From contig CAYWJE010000001.1 of assembly GCA_964458525.1 (NCBI GenBank), positions 1 to 48,520 of the forward strand: a DNA stretch of 48,520 nt, in the 5' to 3' direction. The position numbers and the translations under genes were made by a program. Positions 2-46,666 of the stretch are shown here, piece after piece. Numbering within the stretch: the stretch's first letter is position 1; each line of letters starts with the position of its first letter. This stretch comes from an uncultured Verrucomicrobiota bacterium. GTDB taxonomy: Bacteria; Verrucomicrobiota; Kiritimatiellia; JAAZAB01. The notes below the pieces were generated by a model. It was not told where the DNA came from. It did no database searches and was given only the letters and a program-made list of their open reading frames with translations.

Positions 2-1216
2 CACCAGAAGCTGTGGGCGTGGTACGGAATGTGGGACCATGGCGACGTCATGCACAAGTTCTCCGGATGGGGCTTCGGCTGGAACTTTCCGCCCGACGTG
101 CTTGCGCGCCAGCTTGCCCTGCCTCCGCATGAGCGCAAGTCCGTGCCGAACGCGCGCATTCCGGACTGGCACAAGCAGACGGACTGGAACTTCGACAACG
201 GACGCTGGGGCTGGGGCAACACGGAGGGACTGCCGGGCCTCTTTCTGCAGATGCAGTATCTGCGCACCGGCAGGCGCGACCTGTTCTTCTCCGTCGAGGC
301 CATGGCCCGCCACACGCGAGACGTGGACGCGCGGCATGACGGACGATTCTTCGGCATGGGCACGCGCCACGGCATCCAGCACTGGAGCGACGGCGACCAC
401 GAGGAACGGCAGACTGTTCACTCGGAATGGCGCTTTCATCATTACCTGTCCGGCGACATGCGCAGCAGGGACTTCGCCGAACAGCTCGCGGCGGGCCGCT
501 ACACGCGAGGAGTAGTGTTCTCTCATGCCGACCACAGCGGGCGGCTTTACGGATTATTGACCCTGTGGGAAATGACGGGCGATCCGGCGCTGGGCGAGCT
601 GCTGCGCAGATACGTTCATTGCTTCATCGTGCCGGAAGGAATCGCGATCTGTCCGAAGGTCGCCTTCCCGCAGGTGAAGCGGCTCGCTGCGAAAGACGTC
701 AACGGCGACAGCATGTTCTTCCACACCTTCGGAGCGGCCCACGCGCTGATCGAGTATTACGAGCTCACTCATGACGAGGAACTCAAACGGGCGCTCGTGC
801 GGATGGCGGCAAGCCCCGCTCAATCTTCGGTCAACTGTCTTCGCAAGATCATCACCTTTGCGGCATTGAACGCTGACAAGCCGAAGCCGTTCGCGGATTT
901 GTTGAGAAAATGGATGAAATCGGAACACAGCTATTATCTTTTCAATATGGTGTCGGAATCTCGCAGGCACTGGACAGGCAAGACGGCCTTTGTGAGGCCG
1001 GGCGTGTCGAGTCTGTGGTTCTGGCTGGCGGACGCCCATTACCTGATGGCATGGATGGGAAAGGAGCCAAAGCCAACGGCGGCGGCGCTGAAGGATTTCG
1101 CCGAAATGAACGCCAACGGGCTTCATGACGACTGGCGGCCGGAGAGCTGGCAGTCTGAATACGACCGACCCGAGTTTCGCGAGTATCTCCGGGACCGGCG
1201 CAAGGAGAGAAAATGA
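2..1216 (+). CDS. L-family large protein, C-terminal ~400 aa only (5' end lies upstream of the window)
   Basis: The frame stays open back to nt 2 (HQKLWAWYG precedes the first ATG) and aligns with HHQKLWGWYGIWDYGD of the 1216-aa ORF at 24953..28603. Shared blocks: WNFDNGRWGWGNTEGLPG, FFSVEAMARHTRDVD, GTRHGIQHWSDGDHEERQT, and the tail WQSEYDRPEFREYL. A YetA/PL26-like lyase-type fold is only a recollection and is not verified. Confidence 0.8.
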   Translation, partial: HQKLWAWYGMWDHGDVMHKFSGWGFGWNFPPDVLARQLALPPHERKSVPNARIPDWHKQTDWNFDNGRWGWGNTEGLPGLFLQMQYLRTGRRDLFFSVEAMARHTRDVDARHDGRFFGMGTRHGIQHWSDGDHEERQTVHSEWRFHHYLSGDMRSRDFAEQLAAGRYTRGVVFSHADHSGRLYGLLTLWEMTGDPALGELLRRYVHCFIVPEGIAICPKVAFPQVKRLAAKDVNGDSMFFHTFGAAHALIEYYELTHDEELKRALVRMAASPAQSSVNCLRKIITFAALNADKPKPFADLLRKWMKSEHSYYLFNMVSESRRHWTGKTAFVRPGVSSLWFWLADAHYLMAWMGKEPKPTAAALKDFAEMNANGLHDDWRPESWQSEYDRPEFREYLRDRRKERK

Positions 1217-1301
1217 GCGGCGGCCTTGAATCGTGCGTCGAGAACCGGAGTGAACGGCGTCCCGTTGTCCGAGCTCCGAGCCGTTTCTTTCAAGAAAGGT
1301 C

Positions 1302-1330
1302 TTGCATTATTCGCCAAAGCGAGGTACTAT
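1302..1330 (+). promoter_or_regulatory. Candidate sigma70-type promoter upstream of the first FGE-fold cassette
   Basis: TTGCAT (1302-1307), 17-nt spacer, TACTAT (1325-1330), in the 280-bp gap before the ATG at 1496. Sequence pattern only. Confidence 0.3.
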
Positions 1331-1495
1331 AGAATGGACGGTTCAACGATAAGGGAAATTAAATGCAAGAGAACTGATAACCAGCTCTTGAAAAAGGGTG
1401 TCAAGCGGAAAAGAGGGGAAAGCACGAAAACCTGTCCCGCACGGCGGGAAGTCAATGGAACGGTCTGTTTTTTCGAAACAACGCGGAGTTGCGGC

Positions 1496-3148
1496 ATGAA
1501 CAGCTGCGGTCATCTTCGGAGTGCGTTCGCGGCGACCGCGCTTTGCGCCTGCGCCCTGCTGTTGTCGCCGCCTCCCGCTCAATCCAATAATCTTCGAGTC
1601 ACGAACGTGACGGCGGTCGTGAACGATGAAAGCACCGTGCGCATCGCTTTCGACGTGTCCTGGGAGAATTCCTGGCGGGATACGGACATCAATCACGACG
1701 CCGCATGGGTGTTCTTCAAGGTCCGCGAGGACGGCAGCGAGGTGTGGCTGCACGGCGTGCTCGATGCCGACCAGGTTCTTAATCCCACCGGTTTCACTGT
1801 GGGTTCCGGCACGGAGTTGGATTTCATCGTGCCGGAGGACAAGGTCGGTATGTTCGTGCGGCGGAAGAACGAGGGCTCCGGCCTCGTCGCTTCGACAAAC
1901 GTCTCCGCGCTCTGGAACTTTTCCTCAAACGGGCTGGCCAAGACGGCGCGGGTGTTCGTGCAGGCGTTTGCCGTGGAGATGGTGTATGTCGCCGAGGGTC
2001 CTTTTTATCTCGGCTGCGGCGCCCCGACCAACAAGGAGGCGGCTTCTATAACCAACGTTCAAGGCTCGTTCACCGACGGCGCGTGGACAGCGGGAACTCC
2101 CACAAATTTTCCATACCTCGTGACCTCCGAAAACGCCATCACCATGGACAACAGTCCCGGCAATCTGTGGGGGACTTCTTCCAGCGGCGAGGACACCATA
2201 GGTCCCGTCGGTGTTCTCTCAAACGCCTTTCCGAAGGGATATGCCCCCTTCTACTGCATGAAATACGAAATTACACAGGGCCAGTATCGTGATTTTCTCA
2301 ATACGCTTACCCGTGAGCAGCAGAACAAGCGGACCCAGACCCAGCTACCCGACAGCTTCGTCATGAAGGCATACGAGAACAATGATTGGACCGTGATAGG
2401 CCAACGCGTTGGCATTCGCTGTCCTGCCGTGGTGCCCGACCCGCCCGGGGTGATAACATTCGGCTGCGACGCCAATGCGAACAGGATATTCAATGAGCCC
2501 GATGATGCCGAGAACCGGGCATGCGGCAATTTCGGGTGGGGGGATATCGCGGCCTATGCCGACTGGGCGGGACTGCGGCCCATGACTGAGCTTGAGTTCG
2601 AGAAAGCATGCAGGGGTCCGCTGTCCCCGGTCCCGTGCGAATTCGCGTGGGGCAGCACGAACATCGTGGTCCTCTCGAGCCAGAACAACGACGGCACGGG
2701 CTACGCCACTGTCAGCGCGCCGGCTGGGGCAAATTGCTATTATGACAACACCATGAGCGGGCCGAGGCGGGTGGGTCTTTACGCAACGGCGAGTTCATCG
2801 CGGGAGCAGTCGGGCGGATCTTATTGGGGGATCATGGAACTGACGGGGAACGTGAATGAACGCGTGATTTCGGTCTCCCAGACGGCAGGCCGGTCCTTCA
2901 CCGGTCTGCACGGCGATGGAACACTGGATGGTTATGGAGATGCGGATGTGTCGGCCTGGCCGGGCTCTACGGCCGCCGGGACAGGAATGCGCGGAGGGCG
3001 CTGGCATTATACGAAGACATACGGACTGCACACATCGAACAGAGGCGCCGCGAACAAGGTTCATCCGAACCGTTACTATTCGAATAATAATGGTTGCCTG
3101 CCCGGCGCGCGGCACGTCCGCACGGCGCCGGCCGGGATCGGACCGTAA
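1496..3148 (+). CDS. Secreted FGE/SUMF1-fold protein, type A, with an unrecognised N-terminal module
   Basis: The ATG at 1496 is in frame with ORF 1226..3148 and starts a signal peptide (MNSCGHLRSAFAATALCACALLLSPPPAQS|NNL). FGE-sulfatase-domain hallmarks: EMVYVAEGPFYLG, FYCMKYEITQGQYRDFL, WGDIAAYADWAGLRPMTELEFEKACRG, ELTGNVNERV, GMRGGRW. Closest paralog is 42103..43710. Confidence 0.8.
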   Translation: MNSCGHLRSAFAATALCACALLLSPPPAQSNNLRVTNVTAVVNDESTVRIAFDVSWENSWRDTDINHDAAWVFFKVREDGSEVWLHGVLDADQVLNPTGFTVGSGTELDFIVPEDKVGMFVRRKNEGSGLVASTNVSALWNFSSNGLAKTARVFVQAFAVEMVYVAEGPFYLGCGAPTNKEAASITNVQGSFTDGAWTAGTPTNFPYLVTSENAITMDNSPGNLWGTSSSGEDTIGPVGVLSNAFPKGYAPFYCMKYEITQGQYRDFLNTLTREQQNKRTQTQLPDSFVMKAYENNDWTVIGQRVGIRCPAVVPDPPGVITFGCDANANRIFNEPDDAENRACGNFGWGDIAAYADWAGLRPMTELEFEKACRGPLSPVPCEFAWGSTNIVVLSSQNNDGTGYATVSAPAGANCYYDNTMSGPRRVGLYATASSSREQSGGSYWGIMELTGNVNERVISVSQTAGRSFTGLHGDGTLDGYGDADVSAWPGSTAAGTGMRGGRWHYTKTYGLHTSNRGAANKVHPNRYYSNNNGCLPGARHVRTAPAGIGP

Positions 3149-3220
3149 CGAGGTTGTTGAAGCCGACAATGCCGGTTTCCGGATGAAAGGGGACGGGCGC
3201 GGAATGAGCCGCCCGACAGA

Positions 3221-4819
3221 ATGAAAATGAATTCTACAACACTGGTGCTTGTGTCGGCGCTCTGGCTCTGCGCCGGAGCGGCGCGCGCGAATAATCTCCA
3301 GATTACGAACGTGACGATTGGCGTGCAGAACGACACCTCGGCCCGCATTCGGTTCGACATTTCGTGGGACAATTCGTGGCGCTACACGAACATCAACCAT
3401 GACGCTGCATGGGTGTTTTTCAAGGTTCGCGAGGAGGGCGGGGAGACGTGGGAGCACGCTTATCTCCATGCCGACACGACGGTGAACCCGGGCGGCTTCT
3501 CGGCAGGCTCCGGCTCCGAGCTCGATTTCATCGTGCCGGAGGACAAGACCGGAGTGTTTCTGCGCCGGCGGCAGGAGGGCGCCGGCGCCGTCGCTTCGAC
3601 AAATGTCTCCGTGCTGTGGAATTTCTCATCCAACAGTTTCAACAAGACATCGAGGGTATTCGTTCGGGCGTTTGCCGTGGAGATGGCATACGTCGCCGAG
3701 GGCGCATTCTATCTGGGATCGGGCGGCCAGACCAATATGGAAACGGGCTCCTTCACCGACGGCGCGTGGACCAGCGGAACTCTCACGAGCATACCGTATC
3801 TCGTCACATCGGAGGACGCGATAACCATCGGCAACAATCCCGGCCAACTGTGGGGCACGTCTTCCAGCGGGGGCGGCACGATCGGCGGGGCGGGCGTTCT
3901 CCCCGCCGAGTTTCCGAAGGGATATGCCGCCTTCTACTGCATGAAGTATGAGATCACGCAGGCGCAGTACAGGGATTTTCTGAACACGCTCACACGCGAC
4001 CAGCAGATCGCGCGCACGGCAAGCCAGGAGCCCGATTATTTCGCCGTGTCCGGCAGAACCAATCTGTATTTCAAGTCGGGCATCAGGTGTCCCTCGGTCG
4101 TTCCCGCCCCGCCGGAGCCCATAGTCTTCGGGTGCGACGGCAATGTGAACGGCGTGTTCAACGAGGTTGACGATTCGATGGACAGGGCCTGTCCGTATAT
4201 TTCGTGGGCGGACCTGGCCGCTTATCTTGACTGGGCCGGTCTGCGGCCCATGACTGAAATGGAATATGAAAAGGCATGCCGCGGGCCTGTTGCGCCGGTC
4301 CCGGAAGAATACGCCTGGGGAAGCACGATCATATTCCTTTTGAGCGATGAAGCCGATGACGGAACGGGCTATTCCACGGTCGGTTCACCAGAGAACGCCA
4401 ATTCTTTTTATAGCATTGTGAATGGCGTCGGACCAACCCGTGTCGGAATTTTTGCGACGCCAACATCATCGCGTGAGAGGGCCGGCGCCGCCTATTGGGG
4501 AGTCATGGAGATGAGCGGCAACATCAGCGAGCGGGCGATAACCGCAGGCAACGCGACGGGGCGAGCCTACACGGGATTGCACGGCGACGGGAATCCGGGC
4601 GCGGACGGAAACGCGGACGTCGGCGGCTGGCCCGGCGCCGACGCTGTCGGCACCGGCTATAAAGGAGTGTACCAGCAATATGTTTATACGGCGCTCAGGG
4701 TGTCCAGCCGCCAGATGGCTGCCTTAACCTATTCTCTGCGGGGGCCAAGTTCGAACGACGCGGGGAGAAAGAACGGCGGGCGCGGAGTGCGCAACGCTCC
4801 CGCCGGTGTGGAGCGGTAG
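3221..4819 (+). CDS. Secreted FGE/SUMF1-fold protein, type B, with the same N-terminal module
   Basis: Signal peptide MKMNSTTLVLVSALWLCAGAARA|NNL. Motifs FDISWDNSWRYTNINHDAAWVFFKVR, EMAYVAEGAFYLG, FYCMKYEITQAQYRDFL, WADLAAYLDWAGLRPMTEMEYEKACRG, EMSGNISERA. Closest paralog is 40461..42092. Confidence 0.8.
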   Translation: MKMNSTTLVLVSALWLCAGAARANNLQITNVTIGVQNDTSARIRFDISWDNSWRYTNINHDAAWVFFKVREEGGETWEHAYLHADTTVNPGGFSAGSGSELDFIVPEDKTGVFLRRRQEGAGAVASTNVSVLWNFSSNSFNKTSRVFVRAFAVEMAYVAEGAFYLGSGGQTNMETGSFTDGAWTSGTLTSIPYLVTSEDAITIGNNPGQLWGTSSSGGGTIGGAGVLPAEFPKGYAAFYCMKYEITQAQYRDFLNTLTRDQQIARTASQEPDYFAVSGRTNLYFKSGIRCPSVVPAPPEPIVFGCDGNVNGVFNEVDDSMDRACPYISWADLAAYLDWAGLRPMTEMEYEKACRGPVAPVPEEYAWGSTIIFLLSDEADDGTGYSTVGSPENANSFYSIVNGVGPTRVGIFATPTSSRERAGAAYWGVMEMSGNISERAITAGNATGRAYTGLHGDGNPGADGNADVGGWPGADAVGTGYKGVYQQYVYTALRVSSRQMAALTYSLRGPSSNDAGRKNGGRGVRNAPAGVER

Positions 4820-4891
4820 AAAAAAGAGGTATAAGGGACTGCGGGGTTTCAGCCGGGCAGCCTGCGGTCAGCAGCTCGGGCACCCAGCCGG

Positions 4892-5596
4892 ATGCCGATG
4901 AAAGACAGAGCCATGAACATGCGATTAAGATTAATTATATCTCTATCGGTTGGCTTAGCCGCCGCATCAGCCTGGGCGGGAGCATGGAGCACCAACTTCG
5001 TCTGCTTCCGTGGAGGCTCCTACGACGGATGGGGCGAATGCGTCACGACCAATTCGATCGGATTGGGCGGCGGAGTGTTGACTCTCTCATCGGGGGCTGA
5101 TCAGTCGTTTGCCTGGTCAGACGCCGAAGCGGACCTCGCCGCGTTTACGATCACCGTTGTGGAGTCGGGTGTGCCGCCCGCGGTGACCAACGGAGGCGCA
5201 CTGCGAATAAGCGTGCCGTCAGGTTGGCAATGCCGTTTCAGCCCCGCCGTCACCGCGCCCGCGTTCGGCGGAAGCGCCGCCGGTAAGGTGAATTCCTCGG
5301 TATCCTATTCCGGGAACGGAGACAGTCTTATAGTGACAGCTGTATCCGCATTCGACGAGGGCGACATTCTCACGATAGACGGCTTGAAGCTCCTCGATAT
5401 GGCGTTGTGCTCGCCCGGTCCGAGGCGATTCGAGCTGGAGTTCACGGGAGACGGACAAAGGGACGCGTACGATCAATGTCTGACCTCGATAACAGTTTCA
5501 TGGCCCGGCGGATTCTACGACGGCTGGGACAGCTGCATGCCTGACGACCCCATGCACTTCTGGAAACCCAGGGGTGTCTTGATCATGTCCCAATAG
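4892..5596 (+). CDS. Small secreted protein S1 (unknown family), partner of the FGE-fold pair
   Basis: Signal peptide (MNMRLRLIISLSVGLAAASAWA). Paralog of 43791..44471. Shares SWSTNFVCFRGGSYDGW, VTAPAFGG.AAGKV, FTGDG.RDAYD, WPGG.YDGWD and the C-terminal FW.PRG tail. The start could be ATG 4892, 4898 or 4913. Confidence 0.7.
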   Translation: MPMKDRAMNMRLRLIISLSVGLAAASAWAGAWSTNFVCFRGGSYDGWGECVTTNSIGLGGGVLTLSSGADQSFAWSDAEADLAAFTITVVESGVPPAVTNGGALRISVPSGWQCRFSPAVTAPAFGGSAAGKVNSSVSYSGNGDSLIVTAVSAFDEGDILTIDGLKLLDMALCSPGPRRFELEFTGDGQRDAYDQCLTSITVSWPGGFYDGWDSCMPDDPMHFWKPRGVLIMSQ

Positions 5597-5695: not shown

Positions 5696-5741
5696 GCAGG
5701 CGTTTCTGTTCCGGCCAAATTAATTGATGAAGGAGTCAAAA

Positions 5742-8012
5742 ATGATGTCGCGAAAAATACTCTTTTCCATGGTGGCTTTCGTCTCTTTCACTTTTCTTGG
5801 CGCCGTCCGCGCATCAGAACTGCTGGTCGGCGCCGGCGAGGCGGACATAACGCCCGACAGGCCGGTGGCTCTCAGCGGGATGTTCCGTACCCGTATTTCA
5901 ACGGCGGTCGTTTCGCCGGTCACCGTCAATGTAATAGCCCTCGAATCGCGCGAGGACGGGAAGCCTGTGGATCAGGCCGTCCTCGTGTCCTGCGACCTGG
6001 TGGCCATTCGACCGGGCATTCTGGACGGGTTCCGCGAATACATGAAGGGGCGTCTGCCGGATCTCGACCTTGACAAAATAATACTTGCGGCGACACACAC
6101 ACACCAGGCGCCGGTGATGCTTCAAGAGCGCTTTCAATCCTATGGCGACGCCATGCAACCGAAGGAATATGTGCCGTTCCTTTACGAGCGCATGGGAGAA
6201 GCCGTCGAGAAGGCGTGGAAGAGCAGGGCGCCGGGCTCCGTGGCATGGGGATTGGGCCACGCCGAGGTAGCGGTCAGCCGCAGGCCGGTCTTCAAGGACG
6301 GTTCCGTCGGCGGCGGCAAGATGAGCGATCCCGATTTCAGCCACCTTGAGGCGGCATCGGATCATTCGGTGGGCGTTCTCTCCTTTTTCGACGCCAAGAC
6401 GAACCTGAAAGCCATTGCTATCAGCGTGCCCTGTCCCGCCCAGGCTTTTCAGAGCAGCCGATGCAGTCTGATAAGCGCCGATTTCTGGCATGATGTGCGT
6501 GAACTGCTCAAGAAAAGCTACGGGAAGGACCTCTGCGTGGCCGGCTTCGCGGCGCCCTGCGGCGACCAGGGGCCGGGCGCGCTCCGTTCCGGGAGCGAGG
6601 AGCGCATGGCTAAGCTTCGGGGCCTGCCGGAGGGCGGCGACTTTCCGTGGCTCCAGCATCTTCAGGGCTGGGAGCGGACCGACATGCTCGGCAAGCTCGC
6701 CCGCGCCCAGGAGATAGGACGCCGCGTCGCCAATGCCGTCGAGGATGTCCTGCCGGTCATGGCGAAGGATATCCGGACCGATCCTGCCTTCCTGCACACC
6801 GTTCACCGATTCGATCTGCGGAGCCTGGAGGTGAAAGAAGAGGATTTTGCCCGCATAACGGCGGCGCTCGAGCAGCTGGCCAAGAAGGACAAGCTGAGCG
6901 ACGCCGAATACACGCGAAAGGACTCTTATGAACGCGTGATAGAACGTTACGAGGCGCAGCAGCAGGGCAAGCCGCAGGTTTGCCCCGTGGAAATGCACAC
7001 GCTGCGCATAGGCGACATGGCCATCGGCACCACCCCGTTCGAGCTGTTCACCGATTACGGCACGCGCATCCACCTTGCGAGTCCAGCCGGACAGACGTTC
7101 CTGATGCAATTGGCCAACGCCACCAAGGACTTTCCCGATTACGGCGTCTATTTGCCCACGCGGCGAGCTGTCGAAGCTCGCGGCTACGACGGGTCCGTGG
7201 AATCCAACCTGATCGGCCCCGAGGGCGGGGACATCCTGGTGGAACGCACCGTCGCCGCGTTCAACGAGCTGTGGATGGCGCCGGGCGTTCTCGATGCTTT
7301 CAGGAAACAGAGCGAGGAGAAATTCATGCTCGCGGATAAGGCGGACCCTGCCGGCTGGTTCCAGGTTGATATCAAGCCGTTCTGCAACGTCAACCTGTAT
7401 TCCACGAACGGAGTCGTCGCGCCGGTCCAGTTCTACGCCATCGGGACCGGCCGCAGCGATTTCTACGGCGTGCCGACGGACATCATCGCGCCGGCCGACA
7501 ACGACAACCGCACGGCGATAGCCTTGACATCCAAGCGTTTTCAGCTGCCGGGCGCGAAGGATGTGAAACAACCCGCTCCCAGCGAAACCGCGCCGGCGAA
7601 AGACGCGGATGCGATCATCGGCAAGGCTGGAACCGATGTCACGGTCGGAAGGAAGGCCGATGCGCTGTTCTTCCTGTACGCTACCTACTACACGCTGCCC
7701 GAGGGCGAGCAGTATTTCCGGGTGAACTATGACGACGGCACGTCGCAAACCATACCATTTGTCGGCACGAAGCAGTCGGGCGACTGGTTCCATGTTGACA
7801 AGAGAGTCTACTCGGAAGATGTCCGCCACGTGCTGATCCCGCAGAAGGACCCGTGGCACAATCGTTCCTTCTACTGCATGCACATGATGCAGTGGAAGAA
7901 CCCGAATCCGGGCAAGGAAATCAAGTCCGTGACGCTCAAGTCGGACGAGCAGGCCGACATGGCGATATTCATCGCAGCCGTGACGGGATATGCCGGGAAA
8001 CAGACGAAATAG
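5742..8012 (+). CDS. Secreted neutral/alkaline-ceramidase-like hydrolase with a C-terminal beta-rich domain
   Basis: AAGGAG lies 6 nt before the ATG at 5742. Signal peptide MMSRKILFSMVAFVSFTFLGAVRA. N-terminal LLVGAGEADITPDRPV and ILAATHTHQAPV resemble the neutral ceramidase family GxxDITP and HTHxxP motifs. The ~230-aa C-terminal domain is unassigned. Confidence 0.6.
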   Translation: MMSRKILFSMVAFVSFTFLGAVRASELLVGAGEADITPDRPVALSGMFRTRISTAVVSPVTVNVIALESREDGKPVDQAVLVSCDLVAIRPGILDGFREYMKGRLPDLDLDKIILAATHTHQAPVMLQERFQSYGDAMQPKEYVPFLYERMGEAVEKAWKSRAPGSVAWGLGHAEVAVSRRPVFKDGSVGGGKMSDPDFSHLEAASDHSVGVLSFFDAKTNLKAIAISVPCPAQAFQSSRCSLISADFWHDVRELLKKSYGKDLCVAGFAAPCGDQGPGALRSGSEERMAKLRGLPEGGDFPWLQHLQGWERTDMLGKLARAQEIGRRVANAVEDVLPVMAKDIRTDPAFLHTVHRFDLRSLEVKEEDFARITAALEQLAKKDKLSDAEYTRKDSYERVIERYEAQQQGKPQVCPVEMHTLRIGDMAIGTTPFELFTDYGTRIHLASPAGQTFLMQLANATKDFPDYGVYLPTRRAVEARGYDGSVESNLIGPEGGDILVERTVAAFNELWMAPGVLDAFRKQSEEKFMLADKADPAGWFQVDIKPFCNVNLYSTNGVVAPVQFYAIGTGRSDFYGVPTDIIAPADNDNRTAIALTSKRFQLPGAKDVKQPAPSETAPAKDADAIIGKAGTDVTVGRKADALFFLYATYYTLPEGEQYFRVNYDDGTSQTIPFVGTKQSGDWFHVDKRVYSEDVRHVLIPQKDPWHNRSFYCMHMMQWKNPNPGKEIKSVTLKSDEQADMAIFIAAVTGYAGKQTK

Positions 8013-11566: not shown

Positions 11567-11941
11567 ATGGAATGCCGTGAGATTACGCAAAGGATAATCG
11601 GTTGTGCATATCGGGTATACAACACGATGGGCTTTGGCTTTCTGGAATCCGTGTATGAAAAATGCCTGCTGATTGAGTTGACGAAGGCTGGATTAGATGC
11701 AAAGACTCAGGTGTGCATTCCTGTGATGTATGACAATCAGAGTGTGGGTGATTTCACCGCGGCCTTGGTGGTCGAGGGGAAAGTAATAGTTGAGCTGAAG
11801 TCCGTTATGAGTCTTGCCAAGGCGCACGAGATTCAGTTGGTCAACTATCTAAGTGGCGACTGGAATCCCGGTGGGATTACTCATCAACTTCGGGGAGACG
11901 AAAGTGAAGTGAAACGAAAGGTTAGAAAGTTGACCAACTGA
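11567..11941 (+). CDS. GxxExxY family protein (PD-(D/E)XK fold), probably degenerate
   Basis: ITQRIIGCAYRVYNTMGFGFLESVYEKCL contains the eponymous G-F-L-E-S-V-Y motif. KVIVELKS is the E-x-K block. The C-terminal part is read out of frame over ~20 codons (see findings). Visibly lower GC than the neighbours. Confidence 0.7.
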   Translation: MECREITQRIIGCAYRVYNTMGFGFLESVYEKCLLIELTKAGLDAKTQVCIPVMYDNQSVGDFTAALVVEGKVIVELKSVMSLAKAHEIQLVNYLSGDWNPGGITHQLRGDESEVKRKVRKLTN

Positions 11942-28639: not shown

Positions 28640-31360
28640 ATGAGACAGTTGCAGGCTGAACAACATTCGGGAGGATCGCGCAAGTTGATCGCGGCGGTCG
28701 TCATGCTGTCGTTTCTGCTTGCCGACGGCGCTTTGGCCGCCGCGAAATACTGGATCGGTCCCGCTTCAGGAAGCTTTGCGGCCGACGCTCACTGGTCGCT
28801 GTCGTCGGGCGGCGGAAACGACACCACGGCGCCGGGCTCGTCCGATGTCGCCGTGTTCGACGACGGCGGCGCGGCTGATTGCAGCATTGATTCCGGCATC
28901 ACCGTACAGGGTCTGGAGATACATAGCGGGTATTCGGGCTCGATCACCCAGTACGCGGGCGCGTCCATTGGCGTCGGGACATCCGGCTACGCCCAGGCCG
29001 ACGGGTCATTCGCGGGCGGGAACGCCGATTTGACGACCGAATATTTCACCCTTTCCGGCGGCGCGTTCACCGCGCCGGCGGGCACGCTCAATATTCAGAA
29101 CACCTCCGGCGGCTCCGCGAACAAAACCAACTTCACCTGGACGGGCGGAACTTTCAGTCATAACGGCGGAACCCTGCGATTCAGAACCTGGCTTGCAGTC
29201 AACAGCTATCCCATCCACACCATCAATCTGAACGGCGGCTCGCTCACCGTGAACAACCTCATAGTCACCGGCGGTAATTATCCCGCCTATGGAAGGCATA
29301 TGACATACAGTCTGGGCGCGGCCGACAAGTTCATCGTCGAGGGCGACCTGACCCTTGAGGGCGATGTGCCGGCGAGTCAATATGCGACACTGTATTTATC
29401 GAACGGCGTTATTGAAGTTCACGGCAACTTGACCGTGAACCCCGGGATACTCGGCGGAACCACCGCCGTGAAATTGGTCGGCGCCGCGGATCAGACGTAC
29501 ACCTACACAGGCGGCACTAATCAGAACAGCATTGAGATAGACAAAACGGCGGGAAGTGTCAGCCCCGCGCCGGGAACGACGGATTTCCCGGCAAAGGCAC
29601 TCACGCTCACGCTGGCCGACGGCGCTTTTATCGCGCCCGCCGGGTTGTTCGAGGCCTCTACCAGCTATGTTCAAAATGACGGCGTTTTCACTCCGGGCGC
29701 GGGCGACGTGAGCGTGGGGTCCTTCACTCTCAACGGCGGCACATTCACCGCGCCGACAGGCATCATGGCCATCGCATGCACAACAGCCGGCGCAACGGAT
29801 GTATTCGCGCTGGCCGGTGGAACATTCAATCATAACGGCGGAACCCTGCGGTTCAGCTCCTGGTTCTCTTCCTTGGCCTCTATAATTCACGGTATTGTTC
29901 TTAACGGCACGCTGACGGTGAACAACCTTGAGTATACCGGCGGGAACACACTTTTCGGCGCCACCCGGTATGTGAGTTACAGCCTTGGCGCCGCGGACAA
30001 GTTTATTGTTGAAGGCAACCTGCTGCTGGGAGAGGATTGGGATCGTGATCCGGACGCCTTGAGCAAAGCGGATAACGGGAGCATTGAGCTTTACGGTAAT
30101 TTGACAGTCATTGGCACCCCGGCCATCGGCGACAGTCATGGCGACGGCCCGTCCGGGACAGCCGGCGGAAGCACCGTTCTTAAATTACTCGGAGACGCGG
30201 ATCAGACCTATACTTATACTGGCGGGATCATTCAGGACGCCTTGGAAATAGACAAAACAGGCGGCTCCGTTACGCCCGGCCTTGAAGGGATGGATTTCCC
30301 TGCCAAGCTCTTCACCCTCACCAGCGGCGAATTCACGGCGCCGGGCAGACTGTTCAGCGCTTCCTCCGACTACGTCCAAAACGGCGGCGTTTTCATTCCA
30401 GGCACGGGCGATGTGAGCGTGCAGAACTTCCACCTGAACGACGGCACGTTCACGGCCCCCGCCGGAACGATGTCCGTCACGAACACATACACAGGCAGCA
30501 GAACGATATTCAAGCTGGCCGGCGGCCAATTCATAGAGAATAACGTCTCAATGGAATTCAGGTCCTGGGTCAGAATTAATTCTTACTGGGTCAACACTAT
30601 TGACCTGGGCGGGACGACCGTGACCGTGAGCAATCTTGTTTTCAGCGGCGGCAATTGGATGAATCAACCCAACTGGACCGTTGCCTACGCGCTTGGAGCG
30701 GACGATACGCTGGTTGTCCGGGGGAACTTGCTGATGGAGAGCGACATGTTGAGAGATACGAACGCCAAGATTCGCGTGGATGCCGACCTTGACCTTCATG
30801 GCGATCTCGCCGTGAATCCCGGAGTCTACGGCGGAGCCGCTTCAATCAGGTTTTTCGGAGACAGGGCGCAGTCCTTGACGCAGACCGGCGGCACGCCGCC
30901 GACTAACTTATGGACTCTGGACAAGAGCGGCGGAAGCCTCTCACTCGCCACCGACTTTTCGATGTCGGGCAAGACGCAGGATTTGTCGTGGGTGCGCGGG
31001 ACTCTGAACCTCAACTCGAATGTTCTGAGCGTGGGCCGGAACGTGACCGTTGACCCCGGCACGGGCGCGCTGGGCGTGACGGTTGCCGACGCGGCCGCTG
31101 CCGGCAGGCTCGTGGTCACCGGCGCGTTGACAGGCATAGAGAAGCTGGACCTGAACGTGGCGGTGACGGCGACGACGGAAGAAACCGCGGGGCGAAGCTA
31201 CGTGATACTCAGCAACAACACACCGCTTGCCGCCCAGTTCGCGGCCGTGAAGTGGCCGGGCGCCTGGCGGGGCGAAGTTGACTACACCGGCAATGGAGGA
31301 CGTGAGGCGATGCTGTTCAATCTGCAGAAATCGCGCGGAACGAAGTTCATATTCAGGTGA
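28640..31360 (+). CDS. Secreted repeat protein (beta-helix / adhesin-like) with a C-terminal (P)RG tail
   Basis: GGAGG before the ATG at 28640. Signal peptide KLIAAVVMLSFLLADGALAAA. N-terminal KYWIGPASGSFAADAHWS. Three ~230-aa tandem repeats. Ends LQKSRGTKFIFR. Confidence 0.75.
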   Translation: MRQLQAEQHSGGSRKLIAAVVMLSFLLADGALAAAKYWIGPASGSFAADAHWSLSSGGGNDTTAPGSSDVAVFDDGGAADCSIDSGITVQGLEIHSGYSGSITQYAGASIGVGTSGYAQADGSFAGGNADLTTEYFTLSGGAFTAPAGTLNIQNTSGGSANKTNFTWTGGTFSHNGGTLRFRTWLAVNSYPIHTINLNGGSLTVNNLIVTGGNYPAYGRHMTYSLGAADKFIVEGDLTLEGDVPASQYATLYLSNGVIEVHGNLTVNPGILGGTTAVKLVGAADQTYTYTGGTNQNSIEIDKTAGSVSPAPGTTDFPAKALTLTLADGAFIAPAGLFEASTSYVQNDGVFTPGAGDVSVGSFTLNGGTFTAPTGIMAIACTTAGATDVFALAGGTFNHNGGTLRFSSWFSSLASIIHGIVLNGTLTVNNLEYTGGNTLFGATRYVSYSLGAADKFIVEGNLLLGEDWDRDPDALSKADNGSIELYGNLTVIGTPAIGDSHGDGPSGTAGGSTVLKLLGDADQTYTYTGGIIQDALEIDKTGGSVTPGLEGMDFPAKLFTLTSGEFTAPGRLFSASSDYVQNGGVFIPGTGDVSVQNFHLNDGTFTAPAGTMSVTNTYTGSRTIFKLAGGQFIENNVSMEFRSWVRINSYWVNTIDLGGTTVTVSNLVFSGGNWMNQPNWTVAYALGADDTLVVRGNLLMESDMLRDTNAKIRVDADLDLHGDLAVNPGVYGGAASIRFFGDRAQSLTQTGGTPPTNLWTLDKSGGSLSLATDFSMSGKTQDLSWVRGTLNLNSNVLSVGRNVTVDPGTGALGVTVADAAAAGRLVVTGALTGIEKLDLNVAVTATTEETAGRSYVILSNNTPLAAQFAAVKWPGAWRGEVDYTGNGGREAMLFNLQKSRGTKFIFR
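29045..31130 (+). repeat. Three tandem ~226-235-aa coding repeats inside the 906-aa protein
   Basis: Units start at 29045 (FTLSGGAFTAPAGT), 29723 (FTLNGGTFTAPTGI) and 30428 (FHLNDGTFTAPAGT). Each contains GGTF.HNGGTLRF..W, (L)TVNNL..TGGN, YSLGAADKFIVEGNL, TYTYTGG...EIDKT.GSV.P. The end of unit 3 is approximate. Confidence 0.6.
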
Positions 31361-34022: not shown

Positions 34023-34080
34023 ACCATCCCGAAAAATCTTGACCGCCGAATGTCGATCGAACAACGGGAGCAGGGCGCAG

Positions 34081-40460: not shown

Positions 40461-42092
40461 ATGGTTGGATCAATTCCTGAGAACCTTATGAGAACGGGAT
40501 ACAGGGCTATTACTTTTCTGTTGATTGTCGAAGCGCTATCTGCCTTTACGCGAACGGCGCACGCGAACAACTTGACGATCACGAACGTCACGTTGAGCAT
40601 ATGCGATGACAGCAACGCTTTTGTGCGTTTCGATATTTCATGGGAGAACTCCTGGCGCTATACGAACGTCAACCATGATGCCGCGTGGGTCTTCTTCAAG
40701 GTCAGGGCCGAGGGAAGCGACGTCTGGAATCACGCCTATCTCGAGGCCGATGCGGCGCTGAACCCGAGCGGCTACTCAGTCGGTTCGGGAACGGAGCTGG
40801 ATTTCATCGTGCCGGAGGAAAGGACTGGAGTATTTCTGCGCCGCAGGGCGCATGGCGTTGGCAATGTTGGTTCCTATAATGTGAAGGCGTTGTGGAAATT
40901 CGCCTCGAATGATATTCCCAGGACATCACAGGTGTTCATACAAGCATGCGGCATTGAAATGGTGTATGTTGACGAGGGCGCGTTTTATCTAGGATCAGGC
41001 GGCCAGACCAATATGGAGATCGGCTCATTCACCGACGGCGCGTGGATCAGCGGGACTCTCACGAGCATTCCGTATCTGGTCACATCGGAGAACGCGATAA
41101 CCATCGCCAATAATCCCAACGAGCTGTGGGGGACATCGAGCAGCGGGGGCAGCACAATCGGCGGGGTCGGCGTTCTCTCCAACGCTTTTCCCAAGGGATA
41201 TGCCGCCTTCTACTGCATGAAGTATGAGATCACACAGGCGCAGTACAGGGATTTTCTCAACACGCTCACCCGCGACCAGCAGATCGCGCGCACCGCCAGT
41301 CAAACGCCTGATTTTTTTGCATTAACCGACAGAACCACTCTTTATTTCAAGTCGGGCATCCGGTGTCCCTCGGTTATTCCCGACCCTCCGTCCCCGATAG
41401 TCTTCGGGTGCGACGGCAACGTAAACGGCATCTTCAACGAAGTTGACGATTCTATGGACAGGGCCGCTACGCATGTCTCCTGGGCGGACCTGGCCGCCTA
41501 CCTGGACTGGGCCGGCCTGCGGCCCATGACCGAGCTTGAATATGAAAAGGCATGCCGCGGGCCGTTACAGCCCGTGCCGGAAGAGTACGCCTGGGGCAGC
41601 ACGGTCATCTTCAATCTGGCTACTGAAGCCGATGACGGCACAGGCTATTCGACCGCTTCGCCGGAAAACGCCAACTCGTTCTACAGCATCGTTGACGGCG
41701 TTGGCCCCACCCGCGCAGGAATTTTTGCGACGCCAAATTCCACTCGCGAGAAGGCGGGCGCCACCTATTGGGGCATCATGGAGATGAGCGGGAACGTCAG
41801 TGAGCGGTTTGTGTCCGCGGGGAATGCGACGGGTCGGGCCTACACAGGACTGCACGGCGACGGGAGCCTGGGCGAGGACGGAAACGCGGATGTTGACGGC
41901 TGGCCCGGCGCCAACGCGGTGGGCTCCGGCTATAGAGGCGTGTACCAAGAGTATATTTACATGGCGCTCAGAGTGTCCAGCCGCCAGATGGCAGCCTCGA
42001 CCTACTCTCTACGGGGGCCAAGTTCGAATGACGCGGGAAGGAAGAACGGCGGACGCGGAGGACGAAACGCGCCCGCCGGAGTCGGGCCTTGA
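40461..42092 (+). CDS. Secreted FGE/SUMF1-fold protein, type B (second cassette)
   Basis: Signal peptide ...MRTGYRAITFLLIVEALSAFTRTAHA|NNL (the start may instead be ATG 40488). FDISWENSWRYTNVNHDAAWVFFKVR, EMVYVDEGAFYLG, FYCMKYEITQAQYRDFL, WADLAAYLDWAGLRPMTELEYEKACRG. C-terminus SNDAGRKNGGRGGRNAPAGVGP as in 3221..4819. Confidence 0.8.
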   Translation: MVGSIPENLMRTGYRAITFLLIVEALSAFTRTAHANNLTITNVTLSICDDSNAFVRFDISWENSWRYTNVNHDAAWVFFKVRAEGSDVWNHAYLEADAALNPSGYSVGSGTELDFIVPEERTGVFLRRRAHGVGNVGSYNVKALWKFASNDIPRTSQVFIQACGIEMVYVDEGAFYLGSGGQTNMEIGSFTDGAWISGTLTSIPYLVTSENAITIANNPNELWGTSSSGGSTIGGVGVLSNAFPKGYAAFYCMKYEITQAQYRDFLNTLTRDQQIARTASQTPDFFALTDRTTLYFKSGIRCPSVIPDPPSPIVFGCDGNVNGIFNEVDDSMDRAATHVSWADLAAYLDWAGLRPMTELEYEKACRGPLQPVPEEYAWGSTVIFNLATEADDGTGYSTASPENANSFYSIVDGVGPTRAGIFATPNSTREKAGATYWGIMEMSGNVSERFVSAGNATGRAYTGLHGDGSLGEDGNADVDGWPGANAVGSGYRGVYQEYIYMALRVSSRQMAASTYSLRGPSSNDAGRKNGGRGGRNAPAGVGP

Positions 42093-42102
42093 GGGATGTG
42101 AT

Positions 42103-43710
42103 ATGAAATCATTGATGAGAATGGTTCTTGCCGCGGCAGTGAGCCTCGCGGCTTGCGGCGCGCGCGCAAACAATTTGTCCGTCACAAACGTTACGATAAC
42201 CGTGCGCGACACCACCACGGCCTGGATTCATTTCGATATTTCATGGGAAAACTCCTGGCGCTACACGAACGTCAACCATGACGCCGCGTGGGTCTTCTTT
42301 AAGATCAAGGAGGACGGAAGCGACGTATGGAATCATGCAATACTCGAGGCCGATGCGGTGATAAATCCCTCCGGCTACTCGGTTGACTCGGGGACGGAGC
42401 TGGATTTCATCGTGCCGGAGGACAAAGTCGGTGTGTTCGTACGGCGTAAGAATGAAGGTGATGGAACGCTGGATTCTTCGGGCGTGTCGGTGTTGTGGAA
42501 TTTTTCCTCCAACAGTCTGCCACAGACGGCGCGGGCGTGGGTGAAGGCCTGCGCTTTCGAGATGGTGTATGTCGTTGAAGGACAGTTCTATCTCGGCTGC
42601 GGCGCGGAGACAAACAAGGTGGTCGGCTCGTTCACCGACGGAGCGTGGACTGCCGGCACACCCACTAGTTTTCCATTTCTCGTTACATCGGAGGACGCGA
42701 TAACCATCGGCAACAATCCCGGCGAGCTGTGGGGGACATCGAGCAGCGGGAATAGCACGATCGGCGGGGCAGGTGTCCTCTCCAACGCTTTTCCCAAGGG
42801 ATATGCCGCCTTCTACTGCATGAAGTACGAGGTCACACAGGGCCAGTACCGCGATTTTCTCAACACGCTCACCCGCGACCAGCAGATCAGACGGACGCAG
42901 ACCCAGATCTCCGATGCCTTCGTCATGAAAGCATACGAGGATAGTGATTGGACCGTAATTGGCCAACGCATTGGCATACGCTGTCCTTCCGTTGTCCCCG
43001 ATCCGTCGGCAGTGATAACCTTCGGCTGCGACGGCAATTCGAACGAGATATTAAATGAGCCCGATGATGCCGGGAACCGGGTATGCGGCAACTTCGGCTG
43101 GGGAGATATCGCGGCTTATGCGGACTGGGCCGGTCTGCGGCCCATGACCGAGCTTGAATTCGAAAAAGCGTGCAGGGGCCCGCTGCCCCCGGTTCAGTGC
43201 GAATACGCGTGGGGCAGCACGAATATCGTTGTCCTGGCGAGCCAGAACGACGATGGCACAGGCTACGCCACCGTTAAGACTCCGGTGGGGGCCAATTGCT
43301 ATCATGACATCTCATTGAGCGGGCCAAGACGGGCGGGGCTATACGCGACGGCAGCTTCCTCGCGGGAGCAATCAGGAGGCTCGTACTGGGGGATAATGGA
43401 ACTGACCGGCAATGTCAACGAACGCATCATCTCGGTGTCGCGGACGGAAGGCCGATCCTATACAGGATTGCACGGCGACGGCGTGCTGGATAGCTATGGC
43501 GACGCGAGTGTGTCAGGCTGGCCGGGATCCACCGCCTACGGCACCGGAATGCGCGGCGGGCGATGGTATTATGCAAGCACGTGGGGACTGCACACATCGA
43601 ACAGGGTCTACGCGAACGCCGTTCAGCCGAATCGTTTACATTCCAACAACAAGGGCTGCCTGCCCGGCGCGCGGCATGTGCGCACGGCGCCGGTCGGGGC
43701 GGGACCTTGA
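42103..43710 (+). CDS. Secreted FGE/SUMF1-fold protein, type A (second cassette)
   Basis: The ATG at 42103 lies 10 nt after the previous stop and is preceded by GAGGGA. Signal peptide MKSLMRMVLAAAVSLAACGARA|NNL. FVMKAYEDSDWTVIGQRIGIRCP and GCLPGARHVRTAPVGAGP match 1496..3148. Confidence 0.8.
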   Translation: MKSLMRMVLAAAVSLAACGARANNLSVTNVTITVRDTTTAWIHFDISWENSWRYTNVNHDAAWVFFKIKEDGSDVWNHAILEADAVINPSGYSVDSGTELDFIVPEDKVGVFVRRKNEGDGTLDSSGVSVLWNFSSNSLPQTARAWVKACAFEMVYVVEGQFYLGCGAETNKVVGSFTDGAWTAGTPTSFPFLVTSEDAITIGNNPGELWGTSSSGNSTIGGAGVLSNAFPKGYAAFYCMKYEVTQGQYRDFLNTLTRDQQIRRTQTQISDAFVMKAYEDSDWTVIGQRIGIRCPSVVPDPSAVITFGCDGNSNEILNEPDDAGNRVCGNFGWGDIAAYADWAGLRPMTELEFEKACRGPLPPVQCEYAWGSTNIVVLASQNDDGTGYATVKTPVGANCYHDISLSGPRRAGLYATAASSREQSGGSYWGIMELTGNVNERIISVSRTEGRSYTGLHGDGVLDSYGDASVSGWPGSTAYGTGMRGGRWYYASTWGLHTSNRVYANAVQPNRLHSNNKGCLPGARHVRTAPVGAGP

Positions 43711-43790: not shown

Positions 43791-44471
43791 ATGAACTTAC
43801 GATGGCTATTAATGATACCGATTGCCCTGGGCATCATGTCCACTCCGGCCCGGGCGCAAAGCTGGAGCACAAACTTCGTTTGTTTCCGCGGCGGGTCGTA
43901 TGACGGATGGGATGAGAGCATGAGCACCAACTCAATGGGGCTTGGCGGAGGTTCCGTTTCTCTATCCTCGGGAAGCGATCAGACACTGAACTGGTCGGAC
44001 ACCGAGGCGCCGTTACAGACAATGACCGTCTCGGTCCTTGACGAGGGCACCCCGCTGGTCATCACCGCCGGCGACACGATCCGCATAGATGTGCCTGCGA
44101 ACTGGGAGTGCCGGTTCAATATTTCGGTGACTACTCCCGCCTTCGGAGGCGGAGCCGCCGGCAAGGTGAGTTCCGTCGTTACCTATTCGGGAGACGGACG
44201 AACATTAATAATGCATGTGACTGCGGACTTCCGCAATGATGACGTTCTGACAATAGGCGGAATCAAACTCGTCAACCTCCCAATGTGCCCGCCGGGAGGG
44301 GCGAAGCTGGAACTCGATTTCACCGGCGATGGAAACAGGGATGCCTATGATGAGTATTGGCTGCTTCTGAGTGCCGTATGGCCCGGCGGATCGTACGACG
44401 GCTGGGATGAAAACAGGACCTCCGACCCAAAGCGTTTCTGGAGGCCAAGAGGCACAATACTGATGTGGTGA
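43791..44471 (+). CDS. Small secreted protein S2, paralog of 4892..5596
   Basis: The ATG at 43791 is in frame with ORF 43563..44471. Signal peptide MNLRWLLMIPIALGIMSTPARA. SWSTNFVCFRGGSYDGWDES ... WPGGSYDGWDEN ... FWRPRGTILMW. Confidence 0.7.
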   Translation: MNLRWLLMIPIALGIMSTPARAQSWSTNFVCFRGGSYDGWDESMSTNSMGLGGGSVSLSSGSDQTLNWSDTEAPLQTMTVSVLDEGTPLVITAGDTIRIDVPANWECRFNISVTTPAFGGGAAGKVSSVVTYSGDGRTLIMHVTADFRNDDVLTIGGIKLVNLPMCPPGGAKLELDFTGDGNRDAYDEYWLLLSAVWPGGSYDGWDENRTSDPKRFWRPRGTILMW

Positions 44472-46373: not shown

Positions 46374-46631
46374 ATGAAACAAAGATGTATGGTTTTGTCT
46401 GAAACGTTCGCATTGATCTTGGCGACCGTGCTGGGAGCATCGGCCGCAGACTGGTTTGTGACAACCAACGGGACAGGCTATGGATCCGGTTGGGAGGATC
46501 CAACCAACAGCATCCAGGGTGCGATTGACGCGTCCGATCCCTCGTCCAGCTCGCCCGTGACCATCTGGGTGTCGAACGGCGTTTACGAGGCCATTCCTCC
46601 GCCCGCCGGCACATTCCTTCACATATGGTGA
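46374..46631 (+). pseudogene. Truncated 5' fragment of a beta-helix protein gene (85 codons)
   Basis: Signal peptide MKQRCMVLSETFALILATVLGASA, then ADWFVTTNGTGYGSGWEDPTNSIQGAIDAS...TIWVSNGVY. This matches the N-terminal pattern of 34081..37071 (QDWFVPNDGDGDGRSW...ALASADDGDVLWLAAGTY). It stops after 85 codons, before any beta-helix repeats. Confidence 0.45.
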
Positions 46632-46666
46632 CGGGATTGCGGAAACAAATGCCAAGAAGCAGGTTT

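Follow-up and report, generated by a model that had tools for sequence, protein, structure and literature searches.

The 48.5-kb stretch of DNA analysed here (the window), from an uncultured bacterium of the phylum Verrucomicrobiota, encodes four exported proteins with the fold of the formylglycine-generating enzyme (FGE), designated A1, B1, B2 and A2. These proteins are not FGEs, and a non-catalytic binder with a C-type-lectin fold is their best reading. They belong to a protein family that includes targets of diversity-generating retroelements (DGRs), and are accurately placed as DGR-independent members of that family, not as analogues of GldK and PorK. A1, B1, B2 and A2 are probably secreted, non-enzymatic ligand-binding proteins that work with a motif-bearing partner, protein C, encoded beside them. 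The genes form two cassettes, A1-B1-C1 and B2-A2-C2, with A and B swapped and 35 kb between them (C1 stops at 5596 and B2 starts at 40461; Table 1). The evidence for this placement comes from the fold, from relatives that are linked to DGRs and from the genes that accompany the family, as we discuss below.

All four A/B proteins score above the gathering threshold of the Pfam FGE-sulfatase family PF03781 (36.7-44.5 bits against a cutoff of 23.3; E = 1.3e-10 for A1, 1.1e-9 for B1, 2e-11 for B2 and 4.7e-9 for A2). A1 is 76% identical to A2 and 60% identical to B1, and A and B proteins in general share 57-60% identity. An AlphaFold2 model of A1 (predicted local distance difference test score 90, predicted template modelling score 0.91) has an all-beta N-terminal domain (residues 34-165) followed by the FGE fold. 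With this model as the Foldseek query, the top 31 matches were FGE-fold structures, mostly FGE enzymes (E about 1e-6), followed by OvsA, pFGE/SUMF2 and CalU17; a comparison with viral structures gave nothing meaningful. Profile alignment by hhalign matched A1 residues 250-458 to human FGE with a probability of 96.6% (the FGE sequence used is identical to PDB 1y1e), and a profile of the family matched FGE chains in the PDB at E about 4e-8. Searches of the PDB by phmmer with the C-terminal 110-116 residues alone returned chance matches to cytochrome c or nothing. The N-terminal domain of A1 has no Pfam or NCBIfam match, and a search with that domain alone returned 13 short proteins or fragments only, which were uninformative.

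What the four proteins lack is the catalytic, copper-binding cysteine pair of FGE (Cys336 and Cys341). The first-pass annotation of this DNA had quoted a C-terminal peptide from each protein in making this point, and all four are present exactly as quoted: GMRGGRWHYTKTYGLHTSNRGAANKV in A1 from nucleotide (nt) 2984 (GMRGG), 2 nt before the start assigned to it, with 3148 as the last base of the stop codon; GMRGGRWYYASTWGLHTSNRVYANAV in A2 from nt 43546; GYKGVYQQYVYTALRVSSRQ in B1 from nt 4655; and GYRGVYQEYIYMALRVSSRQ in B2 from nt 41928. Its statement that no Cys pair follows the RGG block is borne out. The 106 residues that run from the GxMExxGN anchor to the C-terminus contain one Cys in A1 (C534), one in A2 (C519) and none in B1 and B2; the same counts hold downstream of the shared G-x-x-x-x-x-GN-x-x-E anchor, and the pattern CxxxxC is absent from the tails of all 89 anchored family members. 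The Cys336/Cys341 loop of FGE aligns with the first variable stretch of the family. Against the template-repeat peptide of a relative from Candidatus Velamenicoccus archaeovorus (RGGNWNNDTS---NARVSDR), Cys336 falls opposite a variable Asn and Cys341 at a gap. The FGE tail was placed here by anchored pairwise alignment, because a MAFFT alignment of the family tails with human FGE misplaced it; the placement is sensible only for the Velamenicoccus peptide, the pairwise scores of A1 and B1 being too low to trust.

The window also has no sulfatase, as had been reported. None of its 20 other large open reading frames (ORFs) matches the sulfatase family PF00884, no window ORF longer than 300 residues has the PROSITE sulfatase signature, and the signature occurs within 10 kb on either side at 1 of 84 related loci. 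We conclude that A1, A2, B1 and B2 are not FGEs because they have no Cys pair and because no part of the family varies more than the equivalent of the FGE active-site loop. FGE-fold proteins without the cysteines are common and already known, and the original observation is therefore correct but ordinary.

Export of all four proteins through the Sec pathway, as first proposed, is consistent with their N-termini, which are signal-peptide-like by sequence: a hydrophobic core (best 10-residue Kyte-Doolittle mean 2.4-2.6) is followed by a family-conserved A-x-A|NN site. In the AlphaFold2 model of A1 a low-confidence helix (residues 7-21) precedes the first domain, which starts at residue 34. The signal peptide of A2 contains a canonical lipobox, LAAC, at residues 15-18 (within 42103-42171), which suggests that A2 may be a lipoprotein; A1, B1 and B2 have no lipobox.

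The family is large and widely distributed. A search with A1 found 5,878 proteins at E ≤ 1e-5, the best of which are 40-55% identical over 85-100% of A1. With one genome per species, at least 578 relatives were found in Verrucomicrobiota, Kiritimatiellia, Lentisphaerae, Planctomycetes, Elusimicrobia, Omnitrophota, Bacteroidota, Ignavibacteria and Calditrichia. The closest relatives come from metagenome-assembled genomes of Verrucomicrobiota, Kiritimatiellia and Lentisphaerae, and the best match in the one-genome-per-species collection is 48% identical. Source annotations name the relatives 'formylglycine-generating enzyme (required for sulfatase activity)' or 'SUMF1/EgtB/PvdO family nonheme iron enzyme'. 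Among 119 aligned family members, sequence entropy is 1.64 bits in the N-terminal domain, where many residues are near-invariant, and 1.44 bits in the lectin core. It rises to 2.8 bits, the value of the signal peptide, in the stretch at the C-terminus that is equivalent to the variable region of DGR targets, which makes this stretch the most variable part of the family. An invariant scaffold runs among the variable loops (R499, G500, G501, S514, R516, R526, G537, R539 and R542). Type A has a six-residue insertion, SNNNGC, and an unusual scaffold, with GLHTSNR where the family has ARVSDR.

The link to DGRs is made by relatives that sit beside the retroelement itself. In locus L004, from Ca. Velamenicoccus archaeovorus, protein P0076 shares 44% identity with A1 along 90% of its length, and a second copy lies nearby. 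The two family genes flank a bAvd gene, a 132-nt repeat and an RVT_1 reverse transcriptase (RT). Compared with the final 132 nt of each family gene, the repeat, located between Avd and RT, has 16 mismatches, all of them at adenines of the repeat. L004 is a textbook DGR with two variable regions and one template repeat. The same arrangement is found in L023 (Omnitrophota) and L036 (Elusimicrobia). A further DGR, G+C-rich and complete, occupies 789-5308 of the metagenome contig L087 (and the near-identical L088), in the order family gene with variable region, RT, Avd, template repeat (4294-4459) and C-like gene. Its family protein shares 47% identity with each of the four window proteins, and its C protein shares 49% with C1. 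The module of family gene and C thus exists in diversified form, as L087 and L088 demonstrate.

The variable region of every DGR-linked relative spans the final ~44 codons and corresponds exactly to window positions 2986-3148. The loops of A1 that lie within it can be aligned with the variable and template repeats of both L004 and L087, and it is there that family entropy is highest. Across nearly their full length the window proteins are 44-47% identical to the L004 and L087 targets. FGE-sulfatase-domain proteins are classed as the largest group of DGR targets, and one of them, TvpA, is reported to have the FGE fold, to lack FGE activity and to be a presumed ligand binder (PMC5758913; PMC5006420). 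Such DGR variable proteins, in which the domain is of the FGE-sulfatase type (TvpA-type, category b, PMC5758913), are by function the closest known relatives of the window proteins. A literature search combining DGR with Omnitrophota found nothing, and preprints on giant proteins of Omnitrophota mention neither FGE nor DGR.

The copies in the window behave differently from those in the DGR-linked loci. The window contains no RT and no Avd, and a blastn search of the four C-termini against it for a template repeat returned only the paralogs, with mismatches of all base types. Over the variable-region-equivalent stretch, third codon positions account for 15 of 26 mismatches between A1 and A2 and for 11 of 15 between B1 and B2, and the same pattern holds gene-wide. 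A1 and A2 differ at scaffold codons inside this stretch as well; the tails of B1 and B2 are 89% identical as proteins, and their DNA changes are mostly synonymous. A shared template repeat would have homogenised the non-adenine positions, and these were not homogenised. With no template repeat or RT in the window and with mostly third-position divergence, these genes look like copies of fixed specificity. A and B look like two such specificities, each duplicated, with loops that do not appear to be undergoing rewriting. The type A pair does differ where a DGR would act: the L087 template repeat has Asn (AAY) codons at 13 of 48 positions, and these positions account for 7 of the 11 aligned amino-acid differences of the pair (hypergeometric p = 0.004). 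No bias towards the Asn positions of the template repeat was seen between B1 and B2. We read the type A pattern as binding residues that may have drifted, or may once have been diversified, at exactly the positions that DGRs target.

The first-pass annotation left out the third cassette gene (C1 and C2) and the A-B-C / B-A-C arrangement. C1 and C2 are 53% identical, C1 is 40% identical to its homologs in L001 and L085, and neither C1 nor C2 has a Pfam or NCBIfam match. The layout of C consists of a signal peptide, the motif F-R-G-G-S-Y-D-G-W, a module of ~135 residues, the motif W-P-G-G-x-Y-D-G-W and a tail of ~25 residues. The tail is conserved, with [KR]G[TS] ahead of the short hydrophobic strand at its end. 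A structural model of C1 has an ordered beta-sandwich core and disordered, motif-bearing ends, and the core bears a weak Foldseek resemblance to beta-sandwiches of adhesins, cohesins and pilins. The module of C occurs in 644 representative clusters; giant proteins, the largest of ~4,000 residues, contain it as many as 21 times, and some of them also have PKD domains. A protein on a separate 1,717-bp contig (P0121) matches C1 with 100% identity across 232 residues, which means that the same strain, or one very close to it, has been sampled elsewhere.

The pairing of family genes with motif-bearing proteins extends far beyond the window. At 46 of 82 loci the same-strand ORF directly downstream of the family gene contains [YFW].GG...G, against 36 of 1557 control ORF segments (odds ratio 54, p = 3e-44). 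In the reverse direction, the family gene adjoins C in 13 of 14 metagenome loci found with a profile of C, the contig of the fourteenth being too short. The window itself fits the proposed module of family gene and motif protein, since C1 and C2 carry two motifs each. C-like downstream proteins are found in bacteria of the Planctomycetes-Verrucomicrobia-Chlamydiae (PVC) group and in Elusimicrobia (L001, L008, L010, L012, L013, L035 and L085), and in four family proteins (P0047, P0058, P0086 and P0092) the C-type motif and tail are fused to the protein's own C-terminus. At L001 (6236-20553 of a 263-kb metagenome contig), genes for an extracytoplasmic function (ECF) sigma factor and a FecR-like anti-sigma protein precede the family-gene/C cassette. 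Two HZS_alpha-domain proteins, each longer than 1,100 residues, come after this cassette, and the first of them begins FHGGPGIG.

Other phyla have partners of a different kind. In Bacteroidota, Ignavibacteria and Calditrichia (loci between L014 and L082) the motif is Q-[YF]-x-G-G-x-G-R-G-D; it stands right after the signal peptide and is often in tandem, repeated every 23-28 residues (examples in Table 1). In the Bacteroidota set, 7 of 10 scanned partners have the type A C-terminal sorting domain of the type IX secretion system (T9SS), and the partners in L045 and L069 consist of signal peptide, motif, linker and sorting domain and nothing more. The DGR-linked loci conform to the pairing as well: giant ORFs follow the DGR cassettes of L004 and L023 and start with ...AQA|QYKGGRGDG...FAGGSGDGWD and FTGGSYDGYG. 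The one in L004 (12686-21553), just after the DGR cassette, encodes a protein of ~3,000 residues or more, with QYKGGRGDG / FAGGSGDGWD directly after the signal peptide. A full-text literature search for the motif GGSYDG gave no match. In the literature searched there appears to be no description of the conserved N-terminal domain, of the A/B/C cassette or of a pairing with motif-bearing carriers that extends across phyla.

These observations suggest how A, B and C may act. The C-terminal loops (nt 2999-3103 in A1) would form the binding surface, as in other DGR variable proteins. A conserved part of A and B, either the N-terminal domain or a conserved surface of the lectin domain, would dock on the F/W-x-G-G-x-Y-D-G-W motifs of C; FVCFRGGSYDGWGE and VSWPGGFYDGWDS are candidate motif peptides for docking with A1. 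The role of carrying the binding proteins, or of anchoring them at the cell surface, would fall to C and, in other phyla, to a T9SS cargo protein or a giant adhesin. A glycan or particle ligand is plausible from the surrounding glycan-degradation genes, which prove nothing. A broader proposal, which is possible and which we put forward tentatively, is that the window holds two copies of an undescribed cross-phylum two-part surface system. An FGE-fold reader with hypervariable tips, sometimes mutated by a DGR, would dock through its conserved domain on the aromatic-x-G-G-x-(G/Y)-x-G-(D/W/Y) motifs of a co-encoded carrier. The carrier would be a small C-type protein in the PVC group, a T9SS type A cargo protein in Bacteroidota and a giant adhesin in Omnitrophota, and readers that have only a Sec signal may be exported or anchored by riding on it.

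Several points weigh against the view that the four are ligand binders acting with C. Many polar residues of the lectin domain are conserved outside the variable loops (for example in GRAFTGLHGDG), and these could equally form an unrecognised active site. Most of the family works without a DGR, since only ~5% of the loci examined have one (4 among the first 84, and the near-duplicates L087 and L088). Neither the sequence profile nor Foldseek recovered TvpA, and it is therefore the family's own DGR-linked members, not a solved structure, that make the tie to DGR variable proteins. The complex of A and B with C, finally, is suggested by gene linkage and fusions only.

The main rival to the binder reading makes the family new enzymes, in which the FGE-fold domain would modify the F/W-x-GG-x-Y-D-G-W (or Y-x-GG-x-G-x-G-D) motifs of the partner much as FGE acts on CxPxR. 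FGE-fold proteins do include oxidases of peptides or small molecules (FGE, EgtB and OvsA), and the tight linkage of family genes across phyla to secreted motif proteins, often with many tandem motif copies, would suit such chemistry, as would a lectin domain rich in conserved polar residues. We consider this unlikely, since a conserved active site does not suit the equivalent of the FGE loop, which varies more than any other part of the family and which DGRs hypermutate in some members, and since no Cys pair, DinB domain or cofactor-binding motif was found. It is scarcely credible that the four are genuine FGEs, or sulfoxide synthases of the EgtB/OvoA type, with substitute residues. The fold is that of FGE, PF03781 is matched, FGE, OvsA and EgtB are the best neighbours in structure and sequence, and public annotations use the FGE or SUMF1/EgtB/PvdO name. 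The proteins nevertheless have neither the Cys336/Cys341 pair, missing from all four as from the 89 family tails, nor CxPxR sulfatase genes in the window, and such genes are nearly absent around their relatives. NCBIfam models of EgtB and SenA score 15-22 bits over about 40 residues, against cutoffs of 360-420. Assignment to EgtB, OvoA or SenA also calls for a DinB-like helical domain with an iron-binding His triad; because the N-terminal domain is all-beta and not a DinB helical bundle, the iron triad of EgtB has no place in these proteins. Membership of the PvdO family was rejected (E = 1.2).

The remaining alternatives concern the variable loops and the analogy with secretion machinery. The window copies might be active remote targets of a DGR elsewhere in the genome, with 2999-3103 and 43561-43665 as live variable regions. 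In favour of this, DGR targets occur within the family, Treponema is known to have remote ones (PMC5758913), the A1/A2 differences cluster at the Asn positions of the template repeat, and A1 has three consecutive AAT codons at nt 3083-3091. An active remote DGR is nonetheless distinctly unlikely. No template repeat, RT or Avd lies in the 48.5 kb, the B1 and B2 loops are conserved, and A1 and A2 differ at synonymous sites and scaffold codons at the gene-wide rate where a shared template repeat would homogenise them. An exact 23-mer from the conserved 3' end of A1 and A2 had 0 matches in the metagenome collection. The first-pass annotation had taken the four for non-catalytic C-type-lectin-fold scaffolds or binders, with GldJ, GldK and PorK as the closest analogy. 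The binder half of that proposal is the one we retain; the scaffold half is weak, and GldJ, GldK and PorK are not supported as the closest analogy. As structural subunits of a secretion or motility machine, the proteins would resemble the GldJ, GldK and PorK lipoproteins of the T9SS, with which they share a Pfam domain. There are weak NCBIfam matches to GldK (E 0.002-0.03), PorK chains match the C-terminal ~40 residues (E about 0.1-0.2), and in the Bacteroidota relatives the adjacent gene encodes a T9SS cargo protein. Such a role is very improbable, given that the GldK model (TIGR03525) scores 13.7-17.2 bits over 30-40 residues against a cutoff of 350, that Foldseek ranks FGE enzymes first and lists no PorK, and that the window has no porL/M/N and no gld genes, gldL/M/N included. 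The family also occurs in phyla not known for T9SS (the PVC group, Omnitrophota and Elusimicrobia), and hypervariable, DGR-targeted loops suit a binding protein better than a ring scaffold.

A secreted binder with fixed loops, as we read A1, B1, B2 and A2, resembles several known systems in part. With the TvpA-type targets of Treponema denticola (category b; Wu et al. 2018, PMC5758913) the window proteins share the fold subclass, the position of the loops at the extreme C-terminus on an RGGxW...R...R...R scaffold and the lack of FGE activity. Some TvpA-type targets have N-terminal extensions of unknown function (PMC5758913), and the window proteins have a conserved N-terminal beta-sandwich. 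In contrast to TvpA-type targets, the copies in the window evolve like ordinary genes and have no template repeat, RT or Avd near them, and neither the N-terminal beta-sandwich nor a motif-bearing partner gene is mentioned in the DGR and Omnitrophota papers searched. FGE itself (human SUMF1 and the enzymes of S. coelicolor and T. curvata) is the best match in sequence and structure, over residues ~245-460 (Foldseek TM-score on target 0.5-0.57). The A/B proteins differ from it in lacking Cys336 and Cys341, in the hypervariability of the loop, in an extra N-terminal domain and several insertions, and in being secreted without a sulfatase partner. GldJ, GldK and PorK are likewise exported FGE-fold proteins without FGE chemistry, and family genes of Bacteroidota adjoin T9SS cargo genes; their architecture is different, however, and the variable C-terminal loops of A and B have no counterpart there. 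Cohesin-dockerin or scaffoldin display is an analogy of mechanism only, in which a carrier with one to many short docking repeats is encoded beside the displayed subunits. It has no sequence relationship to the A/B-C module, for which docking is our proposal.

Thousands of proteins from PVC bacteria, Bacteroidota, Omnitrophota and Elusimicrobia almost certainly carry a wrong FGE or nonheme-iron label. Since the active-site loop of FGE is the counterpart of the DGR variable region, the members form a natural series from hypermutated to frozen, in which the gain, loss and fixation of DGR targets can be studied. We know of no established answer to the question of how DGR targets that are neither lipoproteins nor phage proteins are exported or displayed. 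The conserved pairing with motif-bearing secreted proteins offers a handle on the export and display of such cellular binders.

Table 1. Coordinates of the A, B and C genes of the window and of partner genes at related loci.
Feature	Locus	Position (nt)	Strand	Description
A1	window	1496..3148	+	550 aa; signal peptide, N-terminal beta-sandwich and FGE-type C-type-lectin fold
A1 N-terminal all-beta domain	window	1586..1990	+	residues 31-165; motifs FDISWENSWR and NHDAAWVFFK
A1 FGE-fold (C-type-lectin) domain	window	2228..3145	+	hhalign and family-profile matches
A1 loops	window	2999..3103	+	residues 502-536; equivalent to the DGR variable region and to the FGE Cys336/Cys341 loop
B1	window	3221..4819	+	532 aa; same architecture as A1; variable-region-equivalent loops nt 4670-4774
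C1	window	4892..5596	+	secreted 234-aa partner; FRGGSYDGW nt 5006-5032, WPGGFYDGW nt 5501-5527; tail ...KPRGVLIMSQ
B2	window	40461..42092	+	543 aa, second type-B paralog; variable-region-equivalent loops nt 41943-42047
A2	window	42103..43710	+	535 aa, second type-A paralog; variable-region-equivalent loops nt 43561-43665
C2	window	43791..44471	+	226-aa partner; FRGGSYDGW nt 43884-43910, WPGGSYDGW nt 44379-44405; tail ...RPRGTILMW
Partner	L045	11443..11892		Q[YF]xGGxGRGD protein
Partner	L069	2807..3238		Q[YF]xGGxGRGD protein
Partner	L061	5085..7235		Q[YF]xGGxGRGD protein
Partner	L065	11613..12749		Q[YF]xGGxGRGD protein

Longer ORFs from 1226 and 41800 represent upstream read-through, as the family alignment sets the true starts at the signal peptides. 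The G+C content of the window is 58.8%. The two cassettes flank a block of ~35 kb for polysaccharide degradation, with three PcRGLX-like genes, three DUF4838 genes, two CBM9+GDSL genes, AXE1, a fucosidase-like gene and others. A small gene of the PD-(D/E)XK nuclease family (PDDEXK_3; 11567-11941) is solitary within this block. Three large proteins, of 762, 906 and 613 residues (5724-8012, 28640-31360 and 46625-48466), have no Pfam match at E ≤ 0.001, and at least two of them have hydrophobic, signal-like N-termini. At 33991-37071 a secreted right-handed beta-helix protein of 1,026 residues has an apparent internal tandem duplication, its near-parallel halves each ending in a disaggregatase-like segment.

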